Assembly: GCF_964355755.1 (NCBI RefSeq)
Contig: NC_092680.1
Location: 21,957,045 to 22,021,044, forward strand
Length of the DNA: 64,000 bases
Source: Antedon mediterranea
Taxonomy: Eukaryota > Animalia > Echinodermata
Reading direction: 5' to 3'
How positions within the stretch are numbered: position 1 is the stretch's first letter; each line of letters starts with the position of its first letter. Below, piece after piece: positions 19,322 through 62,029 of the stretch. The notes under the pieces are model-generated. The model did no database searches, had not been told where the DNA came from, and saw nothing but the letters and a program-made list of their open reading frames with translations. The position numbers were made by a program, and so were the translations under genes.

Positions 19322-42239
<22,918 letters not shown>

Positions 42240-43121
42240 CCACAAATCTTTACATATACTGGTCAATCAAGCTGAGTGTGGCATGTATGTCAGAATGGCT
42301 CTATTGGCACTGGTCCTGGGAAAGTGCTAGCCACAAATCTTTACATATACTGGTCAATCAAGCTGAGTGTGGCATGTATGTCAGAATGGCTCTATTGGCA
42401 CTGGTCCTGGGAAAGTGCTAGCCACAAATCTTTACATATACTGGTCAATCAAGCTGAGTGTGGCATGTATGTCAGAATGGCTCTATTGGCACTGGTCCTG
42501 GGAAAGTGCTAGCCACAAATCTTTACATATACTGGTCAATCAAGCTGAGTGTGGCATGTATGTCAGAATGGCTCTATTGGCACTGGTCCTGGGAAAGTGC
42601 TAGCCACAAATCTTTACATATACTGGTCAATCAAGCTGAGTGTGGCATGTATGTCAGAATGGCTCTATTGGCACTGGTCCTGGGAAAGTGCTAGCCAGAA
42701 ATCTTTACATATACTGGTCAATTATCGAATGGCATTATGGGGACTGGCCAAATGCTTGCCATTGACCTTTTTCAATTTATCTAGGCCTAAGAATACATTT
42801 TGAGTACAGACCAAATAACTTAATATTTTGAGTGTCTTAAAATACTGTAAGTGTAATACATTCCTAAATATACTTAAAGTTTGTATACATTATCAACAGC
42901 AGTAAAATTGGTTAAGAAAATGAATTAAAGTAAATAATTATGGAATTCGCACAAGCCGCACAACAGTAGTTCATAAGAAATATACTGTCAAATGTATTAT
43001 CAATTTTTCGTAACAAAAGTTATATATTTACGCACATTGAAATATGAGAAATAAAAGATAATACAGTACTAGCTTGTACAGTGGCGTGTTGTTTTCATTT
43101 ATATGTATCAATGAAAATTAA

Positions 43122-47579: not shown

Positions 47580-50500
47580 ATGTCAGTTGTGAAACGGACA
47601 TCACAAAATGTTGAAGATGATCCTACGAGAAAAAGACGAAAAACTGGAGAGGACGAAAACAGTGATCCAGACCTAGACTCGGATGCAGAGGAAGAGGTGT
47701 TAATTCAATCATAACTAAATTAAATCTAAATTGATATTGTTTTTTGTCTGATTCAAAGTTCTTTCAATTTTAGTGGTATTTGTTAGGGAAATGCAAGAAG
47801 TATTTAAAATTAAAACATATTATATTCAGTCAAGGGTAAAATGGCAAAAGGTACATGACCACAGTGCTGATTTTGCCATTTTCCCCCTGTATTAGTTAAA
47901 ATCATTGACAAAATTAATTGAATTGAACCAGGAGTGGGAAGATGTGAATTAACCACTCACCATTGGCTCACTACGAGTGCTTAAATTTCAGGAAAAACAA
48001 TGATAAAATATTAAGTTGATTTCATTCACTATCTAATATTGTAGCCTAGTAATTGTAACCCCTTGGTAAAAAAAATGAAGTGGAGAAATGAAGCAGCATG
48101 GCATGACAATTGTAAGAGGTTAGAATGAATATCAATTTATTAATTAAAATGAGTAATATACTTTCTTTCAGGGTAATTCAGTTGGAATTATTGAGAGAAT
48201 AGTACTGAAGAACTTTATGTGTCATGGTCATTTAGACTTTTCTTTTGGGCCAAATGTCAACTTTGTTGTTGGTAGAAATGGAAGTAAGTGATATAAAATT
48301 ATGTTTAGTAATGTTGGTGTCACAGTATTTTATCATTAAATTACAACTAAAAATGTACTGTCGTTTGCTGTGTGTCTAAACAGAACAGCAAAACACAATG
48401 TCAATTAGTTTACCTCAACAAATACAAAAAAGGGTACTTGGAATGAAATAGTACATTTTTTTAAATAGTGAAAGATATTTCTAAAAACGCTGTATAATGA
48501 TTATATATACAAATCAGTCAACATAGAACTTTAAAATATTAGGGAAAAAACTATTTTATGTCATTGCAACTACTTGTAATTAACTATTGTTAATATTAAT
48601 TATGATGTTTATGAGTTTAATACTGAATATATTATTTTGTAATTAAATTGTATTATATAGGTGGCAAGAGTGCTGTTCTGACTGCTTTGGTAGTAGGTTT
48701 AGGAGGAAAGGCTAATATCACTGGAAGAGGATCATCTATGAAAAACTTTGTTAAAAATCAAAAAAGGTAATTCTAATATATAAATATATTTATAAGTGGT
48801 ATAAAATAGTTTAGTTTTTAAATGCAGTTATATTACATTTTTAGAGGTATATTTTAATTTCAGTTATGCAGAAATTACAATCAAAATTAGCAATCAGGGA
48901 ACGGATGCATTCAAGCATGACTTGTACGGCAACTCGGTGACCGTCATTCGTCGAATTAATCAAGATGGTCAGTCGTTTTATAAACTAAAAAGTGAGAAAG
49001 GTGCAGTTGTATCGACAAAGAAGGAAGAGCTTACCCACCTCCTTGACCAATTCAACATACAAGTGGACAATCCAGTCTCTATTCTAAATCAGGACACAAG
49101 CCGTAACTTTCTTCAATCAAAGTTACCAACTGACCGCTATAAGGTATAAATGTTAACTCGATGTAGTCTGTGCTTTTAGCTTGGTATTCAATGTTAAATG
49201 ATTATTATGTCTGTGCTTTCAGCTTGGTATTCAATGTTAACTCGATGTAGTCTGTGCTTTCAGCTTGGTATTCAATGTTAAATGATTATTATAGCATGGC
49301 TGCCTTTAAGTTATCCCAGCTGATTGCCATAAGATAGTTAACATTAATGTAGTCTTAATGTCTTCCCACAAATACCGAATGGCTGCCTTTAAGTTATCCT
49401 ACCTGATTGCCATTAAGATAGTTAACATTAATGTATAGTCTTAATGTCTTCCCACAAATACCGAATGGCTGCCTTTAAGTTATCCTACCTGATTGCCATT
49501 AAGATAGCTAACATTAATGTAGTCTTAATGTCTTCCCACAAATACCGAATGGCTGCCTTTAAGTTATCCTACCTGATTGCCATTAAGATAGCTAACATTA
49601 ATGTAGTCTTAATGTCTTCCCACAAATACCGATTGTTATTTATATTAATATTTATATTTCAGTTTTTTCTGAAGGCAACACAACTTCAGCAAATGACAAC
49701 TGATTACAACACTATTCAGGAGCAAAAGGATATCACGGAAGTAACATTGGCAGATAGAAAGAAAGTAAGTATCTATGTATTTAACATGTAAACAGGAAGT
49801 AAGTATCTATGTATTTAACATGTAAACAGGAAGTAAGTATCTATGTATTTAACATGTAAACAGGAAGTAAGTATCTATGTATTTAACATGTAAACAGGAA
49901 GTAAGTATCTATGTATTTAACATGTAAACAGGAAGTAAGTATCTATGTATTTAACATGTAAACAGGAAGTAAGTATCTATGTATTTAACATGTAAACAGG
50001 AAGTAAGTATCTATGTATTTAACATGTAAACAGGAAGTAAGTATCTATGTATTTAACATGTAAACAGGAAGTAAGTATCTATGTATTTAACATGTAAACA
50101 GGAAGTAAGTATCTATGTATTTAACATGTAAACAGGAAGTAAGTATCTATGTATTTAACATGTAAACAGGAAGTAAGTATCTATGTATTTAACATGTAAA
50201 CAGGAAGTAAGTATCTATGTATTTAACATGTAAACAGGAAGTAAGTATCTATGTACTTAACATGTAATCAGGAAGTAAGTATCTATGTACTTAACATGTA
50301 AACAGGAAGTAAGTATCTATGTATTTAACATGTAAACAGGAAGTAAGTATCTATGTATTTAACATGTAAACAGGAAGTAAGTATCTATGTATTTAACATG
50401 TAAACAGGAAGTAAGTATCTATGTATTTAACATGTAAACAGAAAGTAATTAAAATATAACTTGAATTGCTGTGGAAATATTTTCTTGGTTAAATATCTAA

Positions 50501-53500
50501 TTTTATCCTAATTGTTAGAGTCTGGAAGAACTTGATAAAGACGTTCAAGAAAAGAAACAAAGGTTTCAAGATTTGACTGCTCTTAATGCGCTGAAGGAAA
50601 AGAAAGAAGAACTAATCAAGATGTCTGCCTGGGCTCAAGTTGCAGTGATTGAGAACCAGTTAGATCCTATAATCAGAAATATAAAGAAAGAAGAAAACAG
50701 AACTCCAAAGTTTGATCAAAAAGTAGAAGAGTCTGAAGTGAAGGTGAATCAAGTTGAAGCTGAGTACCAGGAAATTGATACATCATTGCAGGAACATTTA
50801 CAGATGGCTGAGGACTTGAAACCAGATCTTGATCTTGCCAAACAAGAACGTGATGAAGAGAAATCTGGCTTGAAAAGTATACAGAATAACTTAAAACAAT
50901 CAAGAAGTACATTAAGAACATTGAATGATGAGAAAAAAGAACTAGAAGATGAAATATCTAAACTAAAAAACACGTAAGTAAACCTAACCAGTTAGGGGAG
51001 AATGGCAAAATCAGCACTGTTCATGTTACAAGAGTTGTCAAAACAATATAGATTATCTTATAAATCTCCTAGAAAGGAGAACGCCTTCTTTCCCCTGACT
51101 GTAACTATAGATTATGCAAATATACTGAAACTGTAGTAGTTCTTGTGTATTAATAATACACATTTCCAATTGACATTAGTATACTTAAAATTTATGATAA
51201 TTGTGTATCAAATTGACATACTTCAATCCAATGATGTTTAATAGGGACTATGCAACCTCTATTCTAGTACAATACAACCATATTGTTGCAGACCTTAAAT
51301 ATAACTCTAATTCTAACCAGATTCAGTAGATTTTATAATGCTACTATTTAACAGAGCTCATCAAGATTATGAAGAAGAAAGACATTTACGAGTGGCAGCA
51401 ATAGAAGAGAAGAAAGAAGAAAGGGAAAGTTTCTCAAAAACATTGGCTGATAAAGAACATGAGCTAAGTCAGTTTACATCCTCAGTCAGACGAGACCGTG
51501 CTCAATTGAGTCAGTTAAGGTATGAAAGAACATGGGCTAAGTCAGTTTAGTTTCTCAGTCAGACGAGACCGTGCTCAATTGGGTATTACAAAATAGCATA
51601 TGTAGAATTTATTATTAGTATTATATAATAAATATTAAGATAAAGATGGTTATTTTATTTGATAAGGCAAGAAGAAGAAGAAATATCAAGAAATTTGAGA
51701 GATCAGAATGTTCAACTGAATCGTTTAAAGTCAAGTCAAGCAAATCATATGAAGATATTTGGGGATTACACACCAAGATTATTGGAAGAGATCAACAAAG
51801 CTACCAGGAATAAACTCTTTCATAGAAAGCCAAAAGGACCTATAGGTATTGTTATATTTTATTTATTTATTTTATTCAATTTTCAGGCACAAACAATAAC
51901 TTATACAACGGTGCAGGACAAGAATTGGCTCTCTATAGAGAAATAACCTAAAAAAAATTGCAAGGGATAGGAATCAGTGGTAAAACCTCATTACGCCAAG
52001 CAGCTGAAGCGGCGATGTGGGAAGACTTTTCATCGGAGCAGAAATAAATAATAATGATATATTAATTTTACTATTTATTATAAATTATAAGAACTGCAAA
52101 CAGTGCGGTGACATGGAAAGAATTTTAAACAGTGCGGTAAATTAAAGACATGGAAAGAATTTTCAACAGTGCGGTAAATTAAAGACATGGAAAGAATTTA
52201 AAACAGTGCGGAAAATTAAAGACATGGAAAGAATTTAAAACAGTGCGGTAAATTAAAGACATGGAAAGAATTTAAAACAGTGCGGTAAATTAAAGACATG
52301 GAAAGAATTTTATAATTATAAATGATATTTATGCTCTATTTTATACTCTGTAGGATCACATATTTCATTGGTGGATGAGAAATGGGCACTTGCAATTGAG
52401 TGTTGTTTAAAAAGTTTAGTGTATGCTTACATTTGTCATGACTATCAAGACGAAAAGACATTAAAACAAATTATGCAACGAGTCATCCCACATAGTTATA
52501 AACCAGTTGTTATTGTGTCATCATTTGAGGTAAGTTATTGTATTTTATATGTGCAACTTCTCATTAACAATAAGTAACATTAGCAGCTGTGTTTCTTTAC
52601 ATTAATTCAATTTCGAATTTTTTTAGGACGATAAGTATAGTGGTCTGATGAAAGTTTGTTCAACTGAGTTTCCGTGCCTGCTGGATCAGATAAAAATTGA
52701 AGATGCTGATGTTTTTAACTGCTTGATTGATCAGGTAAGACCCTGTCTGGGTTATCAATATTTTGTATTTATTTCATACACATCCAACAGTAGTGACTTG
52801 CCAATTGTAAGTAGATAAACCATAGTGAGGCTTATAGAGGTTACTTGAACTAGGTCAGGATTGAACTCTGGACCTTTGGATTAGAAGGTCACCAAGCTAG
52901 AGCTCCACAACTACTAATTCTAAGTATTTGTGTTTTATTTATAGAGAGGCATTGAATCTGTAATCTTAATTGAGAGTGGAAGGCAGGCAAGAGACTACAT
53001 GTTTTTGTCGCCACCACAGAACTGTAAAGAGTGCTTCACTTTAGAAGGTGACCAAATTTATCCTGGTAAAAACCAAAGATCGTATGCATCAAACCAAACT
53101 AAAGCACGAGTACTTAAGGCTCGCTTAGAAGATGAAGTCAGGTAAGATGCTCTACAATTAAAAAAGCATTGTTCTAAAAAAGTACTGCTACTACATACAT
53201 TTTAATAGCAAAACAGCGCAACTGTAGTTAGTAAATCACATGCATGATTTTGCATGTTGAAATAAACAAATTAAACTATTGTACTTATATGTTGCTAAGG
53301 GATGTGGTCTTTGATATATTTATGTTTATTGCTATAGAGAGACAATGAATGAAATTGAAGCGATCAAACATAGTGGAAATGTGATACAGGAACAGATGAG
53401 GGAAATAAATAACCGCTTTAAACAAAGCCAAGGGCAGGAAAGATCTTTAGCAGTCCATTGCAAGAAAATACAAGCCAAGATTAGCCAGTTATCAATGGCA

Positions 53501-56500
53501 AGTTTATTCATTATTAATAAATTACTAGAAATAGGAGGTTTGAATAATCTTTCATTATGTCTTATTTTTGTTTCCCATTTTATTATTGTTCAATAGGAAA
53601 TAAATGAACTAGTTTCAACTGAAGAGCCAGCAAATGTGGATGTGAGTACTTTAGAAGGAGAAGTTGAAAAGTATTTGTTGGAAATAGGAGCCTTGCAAGA
53701 AGAGTTTGAAATAAAGGAAAAAGAATTCAAGATCAGGCATGCTAGACTAGAAGAACTGCAACAAAACTGGAAACAGAAGGCTGATGAATATGGCGGCATT
53801 GTGAATGACATTGAAGCAAAACAGGTAAGATGTTAATCCTTAATCATTTTATTAGTATAATAGACCTACATAGAAATTGTGTACGGAGTCACAATGCATA
53901 CAAATGAATATGACTGCAAATAAAAATGAAAAACGCATCTATTTGCAGGATGACTTAAAGAAGAAGTTTACAGAACTTGAGACTGCTAAGCAACACTCTA
54001 AGCACTACAAAGACAAGAAAACTGAGCACTTACAAGTACTCATTGATCTAAACCAGAAAGTGGAGGCTAAAGAAAAGGAGATTGAGGTATGTATGTACAG
54101 ATGAGATCATGCTTTTATCTATCGTCATTGTTTTCAGTTGAATTTTAAAGCATAGTTGGCGACAAAGAAAAGAAATTCATTCAGACCTTCACAGTTTATT
54201 TTATTGGTTGTCTTTTTTTCAGATTGCAAGAGGAAAAGCAAGTCAGATATCGGAAGAGAGAATTCCTACTCAGAGGAAGGCTCAAAACATTGATTCTGAA
54301 ATACACCAGATTACTAGAAGGATTGAAAAGGAACGTCAAAGGTACAATTCCATGTTGATAAACCTTTAAAATATTTTAGCATATTCATCTTTGAAACAGC
54401 ACGATGCTATCTACTGCTTCGAATGTGATGGGTTCTCAACTGCCTCTTTCCATAGTTCTGGTGGTAGAACACCACTATCTTCTTGGTTTACACAAAACTT
54501 ATTACAGGACATATTTTGAGATGAGAATTGTTTGTCTTTTTAGTCGTGGTGACCCAGAACAAATAACAAGAGAGTATTACGATGCAAAGAATAAATTCTT
54601 TGCAATTGTTACTCAAATGAAGCAATGTAAAGCATTTGTAACGGTAAGTTAAAAAACTACAATGCCCACACTTTAATTTCTAATAATTATGTTTAAATAT
54701 TGTATAATACTGCACTAATCTGTATAAATTTCACTGTAAGTAGGAAGCCTTTTTAATAACAAAACACACATTATTACTGCACTAAAGTGTACTGCATATA
54801 ATTACAATTTGACTGTTGATGGATTTGTATGTGTGTTATGAATGGTGATGAAAGGAACATTTTGGACAAACTAAACTTGGTGTTATTCTGTATAAATACT
54901 ATGAAAGTATTGCTTTTAATGTAATTCTTTGTTGTTTTTTTTCCTGTCCAAAAGCAAATTTAGCTTATTTATATTATTTATCCCTTTTCTTATCTTTCAA
55001 CTTGTTTCTTCTGAAAGCATCATCGCAACAAAACAGACATTTAGCAAATCAGAATTTTTGATTTTTTGTTTTTTCTTTTCTTTAATAATTGTTTAAATAT
55101 TTAATTAATCACTGTAAACCTGTATAGGATATTTGTATACTAATCTAATAATTAGCAATTTCCATAATTAGAAAACTTTAATATTTAAGCTATGTAGAAC
55201 CGTTAACCAACCATTTGTTTATCATCAGAGAATCCAAAAAAATTTCCTTCACTAATATTACATCTTTGAGTAAAACTTGTTTTTGTTAGCCCTCTCTATA
55301 TAAATATGTATTAAAAATATGCACAAAGATTGGGTAAAAATTCTAGGTGCTACACACGATTTATTATTTTAGATGATTAAAATATTCAATTAATCAATAC
55401 AAAATTACTATATTACTATTATTTTTAGAGTTTTATTTTGTATTTTATGATTTTAGAAACTTAAAGAATTGTTAAAAACGAGAAGACAAACATACCTTGA
55501 ATTTAGACGATATGTTGCTATGCGAGCTAAGTGTTATTTTGCGATGATGCTATCACAAAGAGGCTACAATGGAAAGATGTCGTTTGACCACAAAGATCGC
55601 CAACTGCATATCGTTGTGAGTCCTCCTCATATGGAAAGAGAGAAAATTGCACCTGCCTTAAAAAAAAAACTATTTACAATAAAAAAAAACATTTCGCAGT
55701 CCTCGAGAACCTAAAGTTATATTGTAAAAAGGCAGGTGAAATGTTGTTCTCTTTCAATGTTGTTAAATATATTATAGAAAATAGTTTTTGTTTTTATCCA
55801 AGGCACTTGATGCCTGCCTAGAGGACAGAAGACGTACATATAAACAATTTCGTAAGACAATTGTTATTAGTGTACAATTAAGTTTTATAACCATGATGTA
55901 CGAAAGAGGATACGAAGGAAAAGTGACCTTCAATCATTCAGAGGGAAGCATTGATTTGAAGGTGAGAACATCAAAGTGTATATTTTATATATTATGATAT
56001 ATCCAGGTATCGCTATTCACTAAAACAAAATATAGTTGTAAAAAATAACACTTTTTTTTTATAACAGTTTGAAATTTAAAAATAAATTTTGTGCAAAAAA
56101 AGGTTGCAAAAAAAAAAAAACAAAAAAAATCTCAATTTCAACTAATTACTTTTTGGTAAGCATGGAACAAATAGGTGTAGTGGGTAAGAATTTTTCCACC
56201 AAGTCACTAAGAATTATTTAGAAATATGCAATTACTTTTCCCAAAATTAATTTGTTTTCTTGTTTTTCAGGTACATCCACATCAAGGTCAAGGGTCAGCA
56301 CAAAAGGATATGAGAGGATTGTCAGGCGGTGAAAGATCTTTTTCAACAGTTTGCTTCATCATGGCATTATGGGAATCAATGGAATCGCCATTTAGAGCCT
56401 TGGATGAGTTTGATGTTTTCATGGTAAGATTGTGTTAATGTATGTTTTGTACTGTGATGTTTTCATGGTAAGATTGTGTTAATGTATGTTTTGTACTGTG

Positions 56501-58548
56501 ATGTTTTCATGGTAAGATTGTGTTAATGTATGTTTTGTACTGTGATGTTTTCATGGTGAGATTGTGTTAATGTATGTTTTGTACTGTGATGTTTTCATGG
56601 TAAGATTGTGTTAATGTATGTTCTGTACTGTGATGTTTTCATGGTAAGATTGTGTTAATGTATGTATTGTACTGTGATGTTTTCATGGTAAGATTGTGTT
56701 AATGTATGTTTTGTACTGTGATGTTTTCATGGTAAGATTGTGTTAATGTTTGTTTTGTACTGTGATGTTTTCATGGTAAGATTGTGTTAATGTATGTTTT
56801 GTACTGTGATGTTTTCATGGTAAGATTGTGTTAATGTATGTTTTGTACTGTGATGTTTTCATGGTGAGATTGTGTTAATGTATGTTTTGTACTGTGATGT
56901 TTTCATGGTAAGATTGTGTTAATGTATGTTCTGTACTGTGATGTTTTCATGGTAAGATTGTGTTAATGTATGTTCTGTACTGTGATGTTTTCATGGTAAG
57001 ATTGTGTTAATGTATGTTCTGTACTGTGATGTTTTCATGGTAAGATTGTGTTAATGTATGTTCTGTACTGTGATGTTTTCATGGTAAGATTGTGTTAATG
57101 TATGTTTTGTACTGTGATGTTTTCATGGTAAGATTGTGTTAATGTATGTTTTGTACTGTGATGTTTTCATGGTAAGATTGTGTTAAATGTATGTTTTGTA
57201 CTGTGATGTTTTCATTGTAAGATTGTGTTAATGTATGTTTTGTACTGTGATGTTTTCATTGTAAGATTGTGTTAATGTATGTTTTGTACTGTGATGTTTT
57301 CATGGTGAGATTGTGTTAATGTATGTTCTGTACTGTGATGTTTTCATGGTGAGATTGTGTTAATGTATGTTTTGTACTGTGATGTTTTCATGGTGAGATT
57401 GTGTTAATGTATGTTTTGTACTGTGATGTTTTCATGGTGAGATTGTGTTAATGTATGTTTTGTACTGTGATGTTTTCATGGTAAGATTGTGTTAATGTAT
57501 GTTTTGTACTGTGATGTTTTCATGGTAAGATTGTGTTAATGTATGTTTTGTACTGTGATGTTTTCATGGTAAGATTGTGTTAATGTATGTTTTGTACTGT
57601 GATGTTTTCATGGTAAGATTGTGTTAATGTATGTTTTGTACTGTGATGTTTTCATGGTAAGATTGTGTTAATGTATGTTTTGTACTGTGATGTTTTCATG
57701 GTAAGATTGTGTTAATGTATGTTTTGTACTGTGATGTTTTCATGGTAAGATTGTGTTAATGTATGTTCTGTAATGTGATGTTTTCATGGTAAGATTGTGT
57801 TAATGTATGTTTTGTACTGTGATGTTTTCATGGTAAGATTGTGTTAATGTATGTTTTGTACTGTGATGTTTTCATGGTAAGATTGTGTTAATGTATGTTT
57901 TGTACTGTGATGTTTTCATGGTAAGATTGTGTTAATGTATGTTCTGTACTGTGATGTTTTCATGGTAAGATTGTGTTAATGTATGTTTTGTACTGTGATG
58001 TTTTCATGGTAAGATTGTGTTAATGTATGTTTTGTACTGTGATGTTTTCATGGTAAGATTGTGTTAATGTATGTTTTGTACTGTGATGTTTTCATGGTAA
58101 GATTGTGTTAATGTATGTTTTGTACTGTGATGTTTTCATGGTAAGATTGTGTTAATGTATGTTTTGTACTGTGATGTTTTCATGGTAAGATTGTGTTAAT
58201 GTATGTTTTGTACTGTGATGTTTTCATGGTAAGATTGTGTTAATGTATGTTCTGTACTGTGATGTTTTCATGGTAAGATTGTGTTAATGTATGTTTTGTA
58301 CTGTGATGTTTTCATGGTAAGATTGTGTTAATGTATGTTTTGTACTGTGATGTTTTCATGGTAAGATTGTGTTAATGTATGTTCTGTACTCCTTCAATAT
58401 GTTGATAAATGCAAGAATGTTGTACATTTTTGTGTTTTTCTTCCTACCAGGACATGGTGAATCGCAAGATAAGCATGGACCTGATGTTGAAAGTTGCCAA
58501 AGAGCAAAAAATGCGCCAGTTTATTTTCCTCACTCCACTTGATATGAG
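47580..58548 (+). CDS. SMC6: Structural maintenance of chromosomes protein 6 (final exon not found in the window)
   Basis: [14 protein letters not shown], Walker A GRNGSGKS, Q-loop [10 protein letters not shown], hinge PKGPIG, signature [13 protein letters not shown], Walker [17 protein letters not shown]; about 19 phase-consistent exons from 47580-47696 to 58451-58548. Confidence 0.96.
49147..49290. repeat. Short compound duplication just after an SMC6 donor
   Basis: aatgttaactcgatgtagtctgtgcttt(t/c)agcttggtattcaatgttaaatgattattat blocks repeated. Confidence 0.8.
49296..49632. repeat. 84-bp tandem repeat x4
   Basis: atggctgcctttaagttatcctacctgattgccattaagatag...cccacaaataccga. Confidence 0.92.
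49765..50448 (+). repeat. 34-bp minisatellite x20 starting exactly at an SMC6 donor
   Basis: gtaagtatctatgtatttaacatgtaaacaggaa. Confidence 0.96.
52098..52312. repeat. 37-bp tandem repeat x ~6
   Basis: aacagtgcggtaaattaaagacatggaaagaatttaa. Confidence 0.9.
55457..55615 (+). CDS. SMC6: SMC6 alternative exon A (canonical-like, 53 aa)
   Basis: ttttag|[53 protein letters not shown]|gtgagt; 159 nt, phase 0-0. Confidence 0.9.
55803..55961 (+). CDS. SMC6: SMC6 alternative exon B (divergent paralogue, 53 aa)
   Basis: tttttatccaag|[53 protein letters not shown]|gtgaga; 159 nt, phase 0-0, no stop. Confidence 0.8.
56411..58390 (+). repeat. 44-bp minisatellite x ~45 spanning the donor of the SMC6 Walker B exon
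   Basis: tgatgttttcatg|gtaagattgtgttaatgtatgttttgtactg. Confidence 0.96.
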
Positions 58549-58740: not shown

Positions 58741-61700
58741 CAGTCAACTCTCCCAATACCGGACACCCTTGGGCGGGCATATATTTTCCGGTTTTTCGAA
58801 ATTCCGGTTTCCTGAAAACATATTTTTGAAGTTATCACGTTGTCACTGAAAATGCTTGAATCACCGGTCCGAATGCTGCCCGGTACGCGGTCTAGCGTAG
58901 GGGAGGCCTAGGCTATGATTGTGTCAAGCTACTGTAGTTTGAATTAAATAAATACTGATAGGCCTAGGCCTACTTTATTAATATTAAGCTAATTTAATTT
59001 ACCTTTTTTAAAAGTTACATTATGTACCCATAAAACATGTTACAGTAGTAAATTATTGTTTCTCAATGTGTTTTTAACGGCAAATAGGCCTAGGCCTACG
59101 TACGTACGGTGAACATAATTTCGGTCTGTTTATTGTTTTTCGTTCGCGAGCTAGCTCTAGCAGCAGCAGCATGCAGCATGTTTGATAAAAAAAATAGGAG
59201 AGCGTAGATTTGATTGATGCGCATGTGCAGCGGTGTCATAATCAAATAAAAACGCCCACACCTAGACCACATGTTTTTTAAGCTCCTTTATTTTGACGTA
59301 ATTTGATAGCAATGATGAAAATTGATTAGGTAAACGAGCCAAGCAATAATGACACAATAATTAATTGGTAACATTTCAAAGTTTATTAACACTAAATTTA
59401 AAATTAACAAATTATGGCAGACATTTACATTTTATCAGATTTTAAACCAATCATCTAAAGACGCCTGTTTGGAGTTTCTGCGTTTAATTAAAATTTCTTT
59501 CTCCATAATTTCCGTTAATTCCTGAAGTTGTTGATCAATAATTTCAAAATGATGTGCCTTTGAACGAACACCGTGCCTAATTTGACCAATCATAGATAAC
59601 ATTTCGCTAAAAGATAAAGTTCTAAAATCATCAGTGTTTTCATCCTCTTCGCCTTCTGGTTCATCATCAGCAATCACTGGTTCCTTGTCACCATTATAGA
59701 TCCTGATTAGTTCATGTTCCCATTCATCGCTAATTTCTTCAACCGGAATTAAATTATCAATGTTTATGTATGTTTCTACGTCTAAATTGGTGTCTATCTC
59801 TCTAACCAATTCTCGAATCTCTCCTTCCACCATGTCTACATTATTGTCGTCAATCTGGGTATTGTTCAAACAGTTAAATCCACAACGGTTAAAGCATTTA
59901 ATTATTGTAGTTTCTGATGTCTCTCTCCATGATGTTGCTGTCCAGTTTACTGCATCTAGAACGTTAGTTTGTTTTGTGATGTCGCTTGCTGATTGTGCAT
60001 CATCAACTTTCGCTAAAACACTCCGCAACAACTTTGCTCTGTAGCGACTTTTAAACGCTTTAATTATTCCTTGGTCAAGTGGTTGTAAAACAGACGTTGT
60101 GTTTGGTGGTAGGAACGCAAGCTTGATGTTGCTCTTCTCTAATCCAACATGAGAGGAGGCGTTATCAAGAAATAATAAAATATTTCTACCCTGAAACCTC
60201 ATTTGATTGTTTAAGTCCGTCAAATAATCATCAAACAACGCACCAGTCATCCAGGCTTTTCTGTTAGCTTTCCACACTACGGGAAGTCGATCTTTCTTTA
60301 TGGTTTTAAAGCATCTTGGGTTTTCAGCACGTCCGATAATCATTGGTTTAAGCTGAAAAAATAAATAACGAACATGATTAAAAAATACAGAAAAAACAAA
60401 ATTTGAATTTGAAGAGGAAACGAGATCTTTTTAGTGATGCTTTTTATTTAAGATATTTAAAAACGGATGGTGCTGCTGTTTTCAAAGGTTTCGTATGGAC
60501 ATAAGACAGACGAAAATAACAAAATCTTATGATGTACAAAAAATAAATAACATGGCTCTAAAATTTACATGAAAAACAATAAAGAAAAAAAAAACGCATA
60601 AACGATGCGCACATGACTGATTGCATGATGTGATGTGGATAGACAAAATAAATGATTAAAAATAAAACGAAAAACGTACCTTTTCACCAGTCATACTGCA
60701 TGTGAACATCACTGTTAATCTTTCTTTAGAAGATTTCACTCCTTTAACGTCATCATGCTTTTCAGCTAGTGTCCTGTCCGGTAATGCACGGAAAAACAGA
60801 CCAGTTTCATCACAGTTAAAAATGTCCTTTGGTTCATAACCAACGCACAGTTCGGAAATCTGTTCTTTCCACTGTGTTACAACTTCCTGATTAACATCCC
60901 CTCTTTCTCCGCAGATAACCAATTGTTTTATGTCATGTCTCCTTTTCCATTTGGTTAACCATCCATCAGATGCTTTGAAGTCCACAATGTTCAATTCCTC
61001 TGCAAATTGCTCTGCCTTTGCCTTTATTAAGGGTCCACTAATGGGGATATGTTTATCCCTAGCAGTTCTAAACCAAACTAACATAAGCTGGTCGATGTCC
61101 GAAAACTTAGTTTTGATCACTCTGAATTTTGTACCTTTGCTGACTTCCTTCTTGCTCCGATATTTATCCTTAGCTTTCATAATGTCATAGATCGTTGATT
61201 TTCCAAGCCCATACTTTTTCGTTGCTTCCATTACTTTCATTCCACCTTCTACATCTGCTATCAATCTAATTTTCGTAGTTAAGTCAAGTTCATTTCGTTT
61301 ACGTTTTGCCATGATGATTTCCAAATTTATAATGATGCACATTTTTAGTTAAACTTTTAAAGTCTTATTGCAATTGTGAATTTAACAATAACTTAAACAA
61401 AACAAAGACACAAAGTGAAATGTAAATTGAACTTTATTAAAAACAATTCATATGCTAAAAACCAGGGAGTTGTTTTAACAACTGCTAAAAACAATAGACA
61501 TTAAGACATAGCGCTTCGATGTGAGAAAGCCCACCGCAGTTCGATACGCAACAAAGCAATTGCCGCCTCGTGGGTTAACAATGAACTGACCTGTCAATCA
61601 CAGTGTAGCGTTCCATGGCAACATTATTTGATCGTACCGCGAAACGTCGCGCACTTTATGCATGGTCAGGGTGTGGTTAAAAGCTTTTGTACGTTGTGAA

Positions 61701-61961
61701 TGTATTGAATCTGAGTCAGCGACGACGATGTTACGTTGTTATTTCGTAAATATTTGGAGTTTTTTAACTGCCAGTCCGGTTTTCAGAAGCTAATTTTCGT
61801 GTTTTGGCCTTCATAATTTGTCCGGATTCCGGAATTGGGTATTCCGGTTTTCATAATAAATTACAGTACATTTAGAATAGGGACAAATTGGGCCATCCAA
61901 AAAAGTCCGGTTTTCCGTGAATTCCGGTTTTGGGAGAGTCCGGTATTGGGAGAGTTGACTG
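58741..61961 (-). mobile_element. Full-length Tigger/pogo DNA transposon
   Basis: 24-bp perfect TIR CAGTCAACTCTCCCAATACCGGAC; TA TSD at 58739-58740 and 61962-61963; subterminal TCCGGT repeats. Confidence 0.95.
59435..61312 (-). CDS. Tigger/pogo transposase, 2 exons (61312-60680, 60352-59435), ~516 aa, intact
   Basis: CENP-B-type HTH domains (IPISGPLIKAKA, FKASDGWLTKWKRRH); catalytic NCDETG, LDNASSH and QPLDQG (DD29D); splicing restores GEK|LKPMIIG; C-terminal PIP-box-like QASLDDWF. Confidence 0.93.
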
Positions 61962-62029
61962 TACTGTAAACCTAAGCTCTTTTTAAAAACCAACTTATAG
62001 GATACCAACTGAATTAAATTAAACTATGA

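Follow-up and report, generated by a model that had tools for sequence, protein, structure and literature searches.

Does SMC6, a core subunit of the SMC5/6 complex, exist in two splice versions in the feather star Antedon mediterranea, and what would the second version do? The question is raised by a 64,000-nt stretch of this crinoid's genome (the window; all coordinates below refer to it), in which a first-pass annotation had noticed two tandem homologous exons of the SMC6 gene, A and B, and had taken them for a mutually exclusive switch between two SMC5/6 isoforms. We find each exon spliced separately into transcripts, very probably as an alternative to the other, and locate the pair by alignment in the segment that binds regulatory partners in human SMC6. 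The features concerned are as follows.

47580..58548, forward strand: SMC6 gene, 20 coding exons including both A and B, mapped with the annotated A+B protein P0051
54544..54643, forward strand: constitutive upstream exon, spliced to A or B, with an identical 29-nt flank on both contigs
55457..55615, forward strand: exon A, the conserved copy, encoding the end of the neck helix and a head beta-hairpin; contig depth 48.6
55803..55961, forward strand: exon B, the derived, fast-evolving copy; contig depth 15.6
56271..56423, forward strand: constitutive downstream exon with the LSGGE signature and Walker B motif, accepting A or B

Exon A matches, at 100% identity, part of a protein (P0010) named by NCBI as SMC6-like isoform X2 of A. 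mediterranea, and the gene product combines an SMC ATPase head with LSGGE and Walker B motifs, coiled coils, a hinge and the Pfam domains SMC_N and AAA_23. A search against solved structures returned human SMC6 with an E value of 5e-55, compared to 2e-08 for SMC5, and the top four Foldseek matches were Smc6 chains. Mapping of P0051 onto the window covered 1103 of its 1136 residues and revealed 19 introns, the last 33 codons not being located within the window. The three introns around the pair (54644-55456, 55616-55802 and 55962-56270) are all of phase 0.

The equal length of 159 nt, the phase 0-0 boundaries, the splice sites, the coordinates and the ungapped alignment of the two exons, all reported previously, proved exact. 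Both exons are open and have GTGAG donors, with TAG as the acceptor of A and AAG as that of B; their products share 17 of 53 residues, compared to 13 in the best of 100,000 shuffles. At the nucleotide level, 80 of 159 positions are identical, namely 25, 35 and 20 of 53 at codon positions 1, 2 and 3, respectively; as second positions are the most identical, the pattern is the one given by purifying selection. An exon profile built from 72 copies matched the window at A and B and nowhere else. Compared with four vertebrate copies, A matches 24–28 and B 13–18 of 53 residues, in line with the earlier impression that A is nearer to vertebrate SMC6, and the proposal of an ancient duplication with both copies under selection gains from the presence of both exons in a second crinoid, Anneissia. 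The AAG acceptor of B had also been called the weaker one. A constitutive intron (51520-51666) uses AAG too, and the acceptor is therefore weak evidence that B is the weaker exon.

Splicing of exons A and B

Five runs contain the stretch. None is recorded as RNA; run X1 was taken to be RNA because its contigs skip GT..AG introns. Four joints in this run, all GT..AG (54642>55456, 54642>55802, 55615>56271 and 55959>56269), connect exon A and exon B each to both flanking constitutive exons, and each exon is contained without a break in a 219-nt contig; the two contigs share their flanks, 29 nt on the upstream side and 28 nt on the downstream side. Neither an A>B joint nor a joint skipping both exons occurs among all 8 pieces of run X1. 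The depths of the A and B contigs add up to a value close to the 58.2 of the downstream contig, with B contributing about a quarter of the A+B sum in this one run; as contig depth measures level poorly, the corresponding A:B ratio of 3:1 is only rough. Within both exons, the run shows no letter difference from the window. RefSeq annotates an A-only isoform (X2) and a B-only isoform (X3) for Antedon. More generally, separate single-exon isoforms carrying either a conserved (A-like) or a derived (B-like) copy are annotated in 14 species, 12 of which have no both-exon model among the members seen.

Several observations weigh against strict exclusion. The RNA basis is a single run and contigs only, from which rare forms drop out. 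RefSeq isoform X1 of Antedon (two accessions) is an A+B model, as are isoforms X1–X4 of Mytilus californianus, these being the two of the 14 species with both-exon models; skip-both models are annotated in two (Apostichopus and Gigantopelta); and in Anneissia and Pinctada both copies sit in one model, only the A+B type being annotated. Exclusion may thus leak, as judged from the RefSeq A+B model. The length of each exon being divisible by three, both-exon and skip-both transcripts would escape nonsense decay. A fold of the A+B protein had a confidence of <50 over much of 961-1075, which would speak against joint inclusion but is not counted as evidence, the alignment being biased (copy B fully covered in only 2 of 60 rows). 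What stands of the mutual exclusion originally proposed are its four expected junctions and the lack of 55615>55803 in the one RNA run; its strictness is called into question by the A+B models of Antedon and M. californianus. Overall, we regard either-or splicing of two functional exons as highly probable.

One DNA contig covers both exons without a break (run X3, 54725-56364), as does run X4, the two runs representing one sample, perhaps the window's own source. An assembly artefact was ruled out, as RNA contigs use both exons and relatives carry both; so was a pseudo-exon B, the exon being spliced on both sides and open in Anneissia. A further run X1 contig, of depth 3.2, lies over the A-B intron alone (55638-55805), with most neighbouring intron sequence uncovered; a slowly removed A-B intron is possibly its source, though we take this as a weak hint only.

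Two predicted RNA structures are candidates for a role in the exclusion.

55634..55755, forward strand: predicted 122-nt RNA hairpin within the 187-nt A-B intron, candidate block to A>B joining
55009..55035, forward strand: 27-nt intronic element, 85% complementary to the interior of exon A (55532-55558)

The A-B intron folds at –41.8 kcal/mol (z –4.83, with 0 of 200 shuffles as good), most pairs of the hairpin stem having a probability of at least 0.9. Among 28 segments from the gene's 19 introns, this intron has the lowest z (–4.13); the next lowest (–3.54) is the start of another SMC6 intron (50974-51160), which speaks against a special role of the hairpin insofar as an unrelated intron also folds well. 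The stem leaves 18 nt of the intron on its 5′ side and 47 nt on its 3′ side, with the donor in a small hairpin. The most plausible branch-like site (55763) lies 147 nt from the A donor in the linear sequence and about 30 unpaired nt from it with the hairpin folded; a weak branch candidate at 55658 lies 42 nt from the donor, but seven AGs precede the acceptor. Steric interference is limited to distances of <50 nt between donor and branch point (PMC5740500, in excerpt). With the donor within ~30 unpaired bases of the branch-like site, A>B joining would be disfavoured, making the hairpin a candidate device for bringing the two together and blocking this joint. As in exclusion by steric hindrance or RNA structure (PMC5740500, in excerpt; Dscam1), the intron between the alternatives appears poorly spliced; unlike in the short-intron or docking-selector cases of that literature, the 187-nt SMC6 intron is predicted to be brought close by a local hairpin.

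The duplex between 55009-55035 and exon A was predicted at –30.7 kcal/mol, with 0 of 300 intron shuffles as good, and was the only hit of six exon-intron duplex tests; as a candidate mechanism, this pairing could hide exon A and so favour B. No shared element of the docking-selector kind was found among the 25 longest of 99 inverted repeats or in the six exon-intron tests. In a further locus with an exon pair (L004), the inter-exon intron is short (65 nt) and unstructured.

The exon pair and the partner-binding segment of human SMC6

Exon position p corresponds, without gaps, to residue 917+p of human SMC6 and 951+p of yeast Smc6, the whole exon being human 918–970. In a structural model of the B isoform, the exon accounts for the final 34 residues of the neck helix and for a beta-hairpin into the head (pLDDT 83–91 over the exon), with a normal fold predicted for the B protein. 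The earlier description of the segment as neck coiled coil thus applies to these last 34 residues; it does not extend to the head beta-hairpin, which the exon also includes.

In an AlphaFold model of the human proteins, SIMC1-SLF2 contacts SMC6 at L939, R940, K942, L943, Y944, D946, N947 and K957, and three sets of alanine substitutions in SMC6 cut or abolished SIMC1-SLF2 binding (PMC12656486, in excerpt). For the viral protein HBx, 12 contacted SMC6 residues are listed, from H925 to K957 (bioRxiv 10.1101/2025.11.11.685253). By alignment, the exon span holds every mutated SIMC1-SLF2 contact and all 12 listed HBx contacts. Yeast Nse4 and Nse6 compete for neck residues 949–978, with Nse6 touching N963, N966 and D974 (PMC10636319, in excerpt); this stretch maps to exon positions 1–27. 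Of the two interfaces that the first-pass annotation had suggested would differ between isoforms, that with Nse5/6 (SLF2) is thereby strengthened, its contacts mapping residue by residue onto the exon in sequence alignment, while that with the kleisin finds support, by analogy with the yeast Nse4/Nse6 neck stretch, at the level of the segment only.

At the equivalents of human residues 940, 942, 944 and 957, exon A encodes R, K, Y and K, and exon B S, Q, S and K. After near-duplicates had been dropped (9 of 48 conserved and 8 of 24 derived copies), R940 together with F/Y944 was found to be kept in 36 of 39 conserved vs. 1 of 16 derived copies, a contrast inflated by labels that were set by likeness to outgroups, and drawn from sequences that are not independent. 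Structural residues are retained in the derived copies: R926 in 16, F945 in 15 and H962 in 15 of 16.

Other features of the segment argue against a loss of docking, or at least against a complete one. The SIMC1-facing residues K942 and K957 remain K/R in 15 of 16 derived copies, and R940 remains in 11 of 16. Even conserved invertebrate copies keep the human interface only in part: positions 946 and 947 vary, and position 943 is mostly aromatic in these copies, with B having L as in human. Derived copies change off the patch too (F960 kept in 4 of 16, R952 in 9 of 16), as under general relaxation. Finally, the alignment behind the B isoform model consisted mostly of conserved copies.

Distribution, rate and origins of the pair, and its surroundings

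A conserved together with a divergent copy is present in 16 named species, plus records P0003, P0004 and L004. These species comprise crinoids (Antedon, Anneissia), a sea cucumber (Apostichopus), an acorn worm (Glandiceps), a ribbon worm (Lineus) and molluscs (two Haliotis, Gigantopelta, four Mytilus, Saccostrea, Ostrea, Mya and Pinctada). A derived-type exon alone was seen in Ptychodera, two Crassostrea, Mercenaria and Haliotis cracherodii, whose other isoforms were not retrieved. All 24 derived copies examined have an open frame of 53–58 residues. The conserved copy comes first in crinoids, P0003 and L004, and the derived copy first in M. californianus, Pinctada and P0004. At the level of annotation, no second form occurs among the cluster members read for Branchiostoma (10), Lytechinus (3), Asterias (2), Tubulanus (4), Pocillopora-like corals (15 listed of 50) and sharks (14); at the level of the locus, three coral-like loci (L001–L003) span both flanking exons and contain one copy only. 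A word-based search with exon B alone gave no match. Among five profile matches to B, P0005 and P0007 were dropped as repeat proteins, and P0006 is an SMC6 with only one copy. Pinctada imbricata and Mytilus coruscus have two SMC6-like records each (P0019 and P0023; P0071 and P0132), which are haplotypes or paralogues.

Of 171 species pairs, 170 show lower identity in the derived than in the conserved copy (mean 31% vs. 57%; the pairs are non-independent). In 6 of the 16 pairs examined, no other stretch of 53 residues in the protein (ends excluded) is as poorly conserved as the derived copy, three of these being non-independent Mytilus pairs. Between Antedon and Anneissia, identity amounts to 42/53 for A, 22/53 for B and 78% for the rest of the protein, in line with both copies being conserved in relatives. 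M. edulis and M. californianus agree at 53/53 positions of the conserved copy, 43/53 of the derived copy and 97.5% of the rest; M. edulis and M. trossulus differ at 4/53 derived, 0/53 conserved and 0.8% of other positions; and between M. edulis and M. galloprovincialis neither copy differs. In deeper pairs, 2–25% of windows are as diverged as the derived copy.

In a first tree, computed from 53 columns and 57 of the 72 rows, 17 derived copies grouped together (95/85). In a second tree, from which four long rows and columns 26–27 had been removed, the union of crinoids and molluscs dropped to 88/34, and starred branches force at least three changes. There, the mollusc derived copies except that of Mya form one starred clade of bivalves and gastropods (96/88), the crinoid derived copies form another, and the hemichordate, Mya and L004 derived copies group with their own conserved copies. 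Sequence grouping of this kind suggests repeated duplication, or resetting by conversion. Approximately unbiased tests rejected none of the alternatives (crinoid-specific duplication, p 0.35; single derived origin, p 0.29; lophotrochozoan clade, p 0.42), and trees of ~53 columns cannot settle whether there was one origin or several. The first copies of L004 (1022-1404) and P0003 are alike at 49/53 positions, their second copies at only 17/53; either change has been very fast, or the two second copies are different members of an array of three.

Elsewhere in SMC6, an intron with GC-AG ends lies at 53498 (donor GCAAGT), and tandem arrays at 56411-58390 and 49763-50448 start at intron splice donors. 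The former consists of 45 copies of 44 nt, each with the exon end and a GTAAG donor, the latter of 20 copies of 34 nt; the first donor of the 44-nt array is used, as an RNA contig runs from 56424 into the next exon. At 42177-42722, a 91-nt unit repeated six times contains the last codons and the stop of the upstream gene, whose end may resemble the aspartate transcarbamylase end of CAD. A pogo/Tigger-type DNA transposon at about 58742-61963 on the reverse strand, inside the last SMC6 intron, has two open frames with CENP-B_N, HTH_Tnp_Tc5 and DDE_1 and inverted ends judged by eye.

Explanations for exon B and their meaning

To us, the chances are about even that the main effect of exon B is an SMC5/6 complex with weakened or altered docking of Nse5/6-type partners. 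Single-exon A and single-exon B transcripts both exist, and by alignment the exon is the segment carrying the SLF2/SIMC1 contacts of human SMC6. The aromatic residue at 944 is lost in B and in most derived copies, and R940 in some, with R926, F945 and H962 staying in place. Docking of Nse5/6-type partners (SLF2 with SLF1 or SIMC1) would be weakened in B complexes, and the A-B intron hairpin may disfavour, without fully preventing, the joining of A to B. The Nse5/6 of yeast reduces ATPase activity and the initiation of loops and helps recruitment (PMC13167486, in excerpt), and it displaces Nse4 from the SMC6 neck; by analogy, B complexes may escape the Nse5/6 brake and also lose Nse5/6-guided recruitment, which would provide the animal with two SMC5/6 forms under different regulation. 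Nse5 and Nse6 are described as ancient and widespread, if patchily detected (bioRxiv 10.1101/2024.01.07.573240, in excerpt). More tentatively, several invertebrate phyla might have repeatedly duplicated the exon that encodes the docking site and viral footprint, with splicing building an SMC5/6 complex blind to its regulator and to viral mimics, a fast-evolving immune or germline variant; this wider picture we consider doubtful.

Less likely again is virus evasion, in which B would diversify the surface that nuclear DNA viruses attack, such that part of the SMC5/6 pool resists antagonists and A does the housekeeping. All 12 HBx contacts fall in the exon span, where A matches the human residue at 8 and B at 4 of 12, and the derived copy's place as the least conserved 53-residue window in 6 of 16 pairs, its 4/53 vs. 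0/53 changes between M. edulis and M. trossulus and the episodic positive selection described for primate SMC6 (bioRxiv 10.1101/202671, in excerpt) would all fit. However, HBx is mammalian, the derived copies of M. edulis and M. galloprovincialis are identical, 2–25% of windows are equally diverged in deeper pairs, and the letters of A and B do not differ between the RNA run and the window. Lost SLF2/SIMC1 docking would itself be expected to reduce antiviral recruitment, and we know of no antagonist of invertebrate (echinoderm, mollusc) SMC6. Virus evasion and weakened docking are not mutually exclusive, because HBx and SLF2 share one surface.

A tissue-specific partner switch, with B as a germline or stage form pairing with another kleisin or Nse5/6 paralogue, seems to us somewhat less probable than virus evasion. 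Reproductive proteins typically evolve fast, as this proposal would have it. The neck segment for which yeast Nse4 and Nse6 compete coincides with exon positions 1–27 (PMC10636319, in excerpt), and among human tandem-exon isoforms, three in four are tissue-specific (PMC9741552, in excerpt); however, A and B forms both occur in one run, and the derived copies share so little (mean 31%, 171 pairs) as to argue against one conserved alternative partner.

At nearly the same low level we place a tolerated minor isoform, in which a spare copy drifts under weak selection for foldability, either without a distinct job or with nothing more than a dosage effect. An exon of phase 0-0 and a multiple of three duplicates easily, in 170 of 171 pairs it is the derived copies that are less alike, their changes extend beyond the docking patch, origins look repeated, and the both-exon and skip-both models amount to loose control. 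Yet B makes up about a quarter of the summed contig depth (crudely, in one run), and 24 of 24 derived copies have stayed open at 53–58 residues. The mollusc derived clade across bivalves and gastropods (96/88) implies that the copy has been retained for long, which counts against mere tolerance, and the segment exists in vertebrates, corals, amphioxus, starfish and urchins, among whose sampled members no duplicate appeared. Routine inclusion of A and B as a longer head insertion, with single-exon forms as by-products, is very improbable: RefSeq X1 of Antedon (two accessions), M. californianus X1–X4 and the single Anneissia model hold both exons, but in run X1 the A and B contigs are unbroken and A is never joined to B, and among the members seen, 12 of the 14 species for which isoform pairs are annotated lack a both-exon model.

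Tandem-exon substitution as such is known. Like the SMC6 pair, mutually exclusive homologous exons match in length and phase, and one or the other supplies the same structural segment (PMC9741552, PMC8373072 and PMC5740500, all in excerpt), and as a class they are described as old and as having arisen repeatedly in animals. For human, 236 such substitution events are given (PMC9741552, PMC8373072, in excerpt). There, key residues are usually kept and changes conservative (PMC9741552, in excerpt), whereas B of SMC6 loses residues of a tested interface; also, the switch sits in a ubiquitous chromosome ATPase, not in an ion channel or muscle protein. In the one supplementary file of the human catalogue (PMC8373072), SMC6 had 0 hits, compared to 27 for the control TPM1.

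The same neck helix is the control point in the alternation of SIMC1-SLF2 and SLF1-SLF2 and in the yeast Nse4/Nse6 switch, and here too differently regulated SMC5/6 pools would result; known SMC5/6 switching, however, swaps the partner, whereas here the docking site of SMC6 itself is swapped by splicing. The footprint of the HBx 'Leucine key' (PDB 9LWI-9LWL) lies entirely within the exon-encoded segment, but the HBx system is mammalian, and no duplicate exon was seen in the vertebrate proteins sampled. In two reviews, 'isoform' and 'splic' (PMC13167486) or 'isoform' and 'exon' (PMC13605376) occur 0 times, and a literature search, with most subscription journals outside its coverage, returned no earlier description of an SMC6 exon switch; the A and B isoforms are present in automated annotation, undescribed there. 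What is new is thus a known splicing device, tandem-exon substitution, acting where regulators dock on a core SMC subunit, some of the lost residues belonging to the interface.

An apparently repeated origin, with loss of the same aromatic residue, suggests that the switch is useful. The roles of Nse5/6 as ATPase brake, loader and recruiter to damaged or viral DNA are now studied via engineered point mutants. Both-exon RefSeq models of SMC6 in these animals are probably minor forms. If weakened docking is indeed what exon B brings about, oysters, mussels, abalone, sea cucumbers and feather stars would make a natural separation-of-function isoform from one gene; the splice switch would lie in a core SMC subunit, at a place that a human virus attacks as well.

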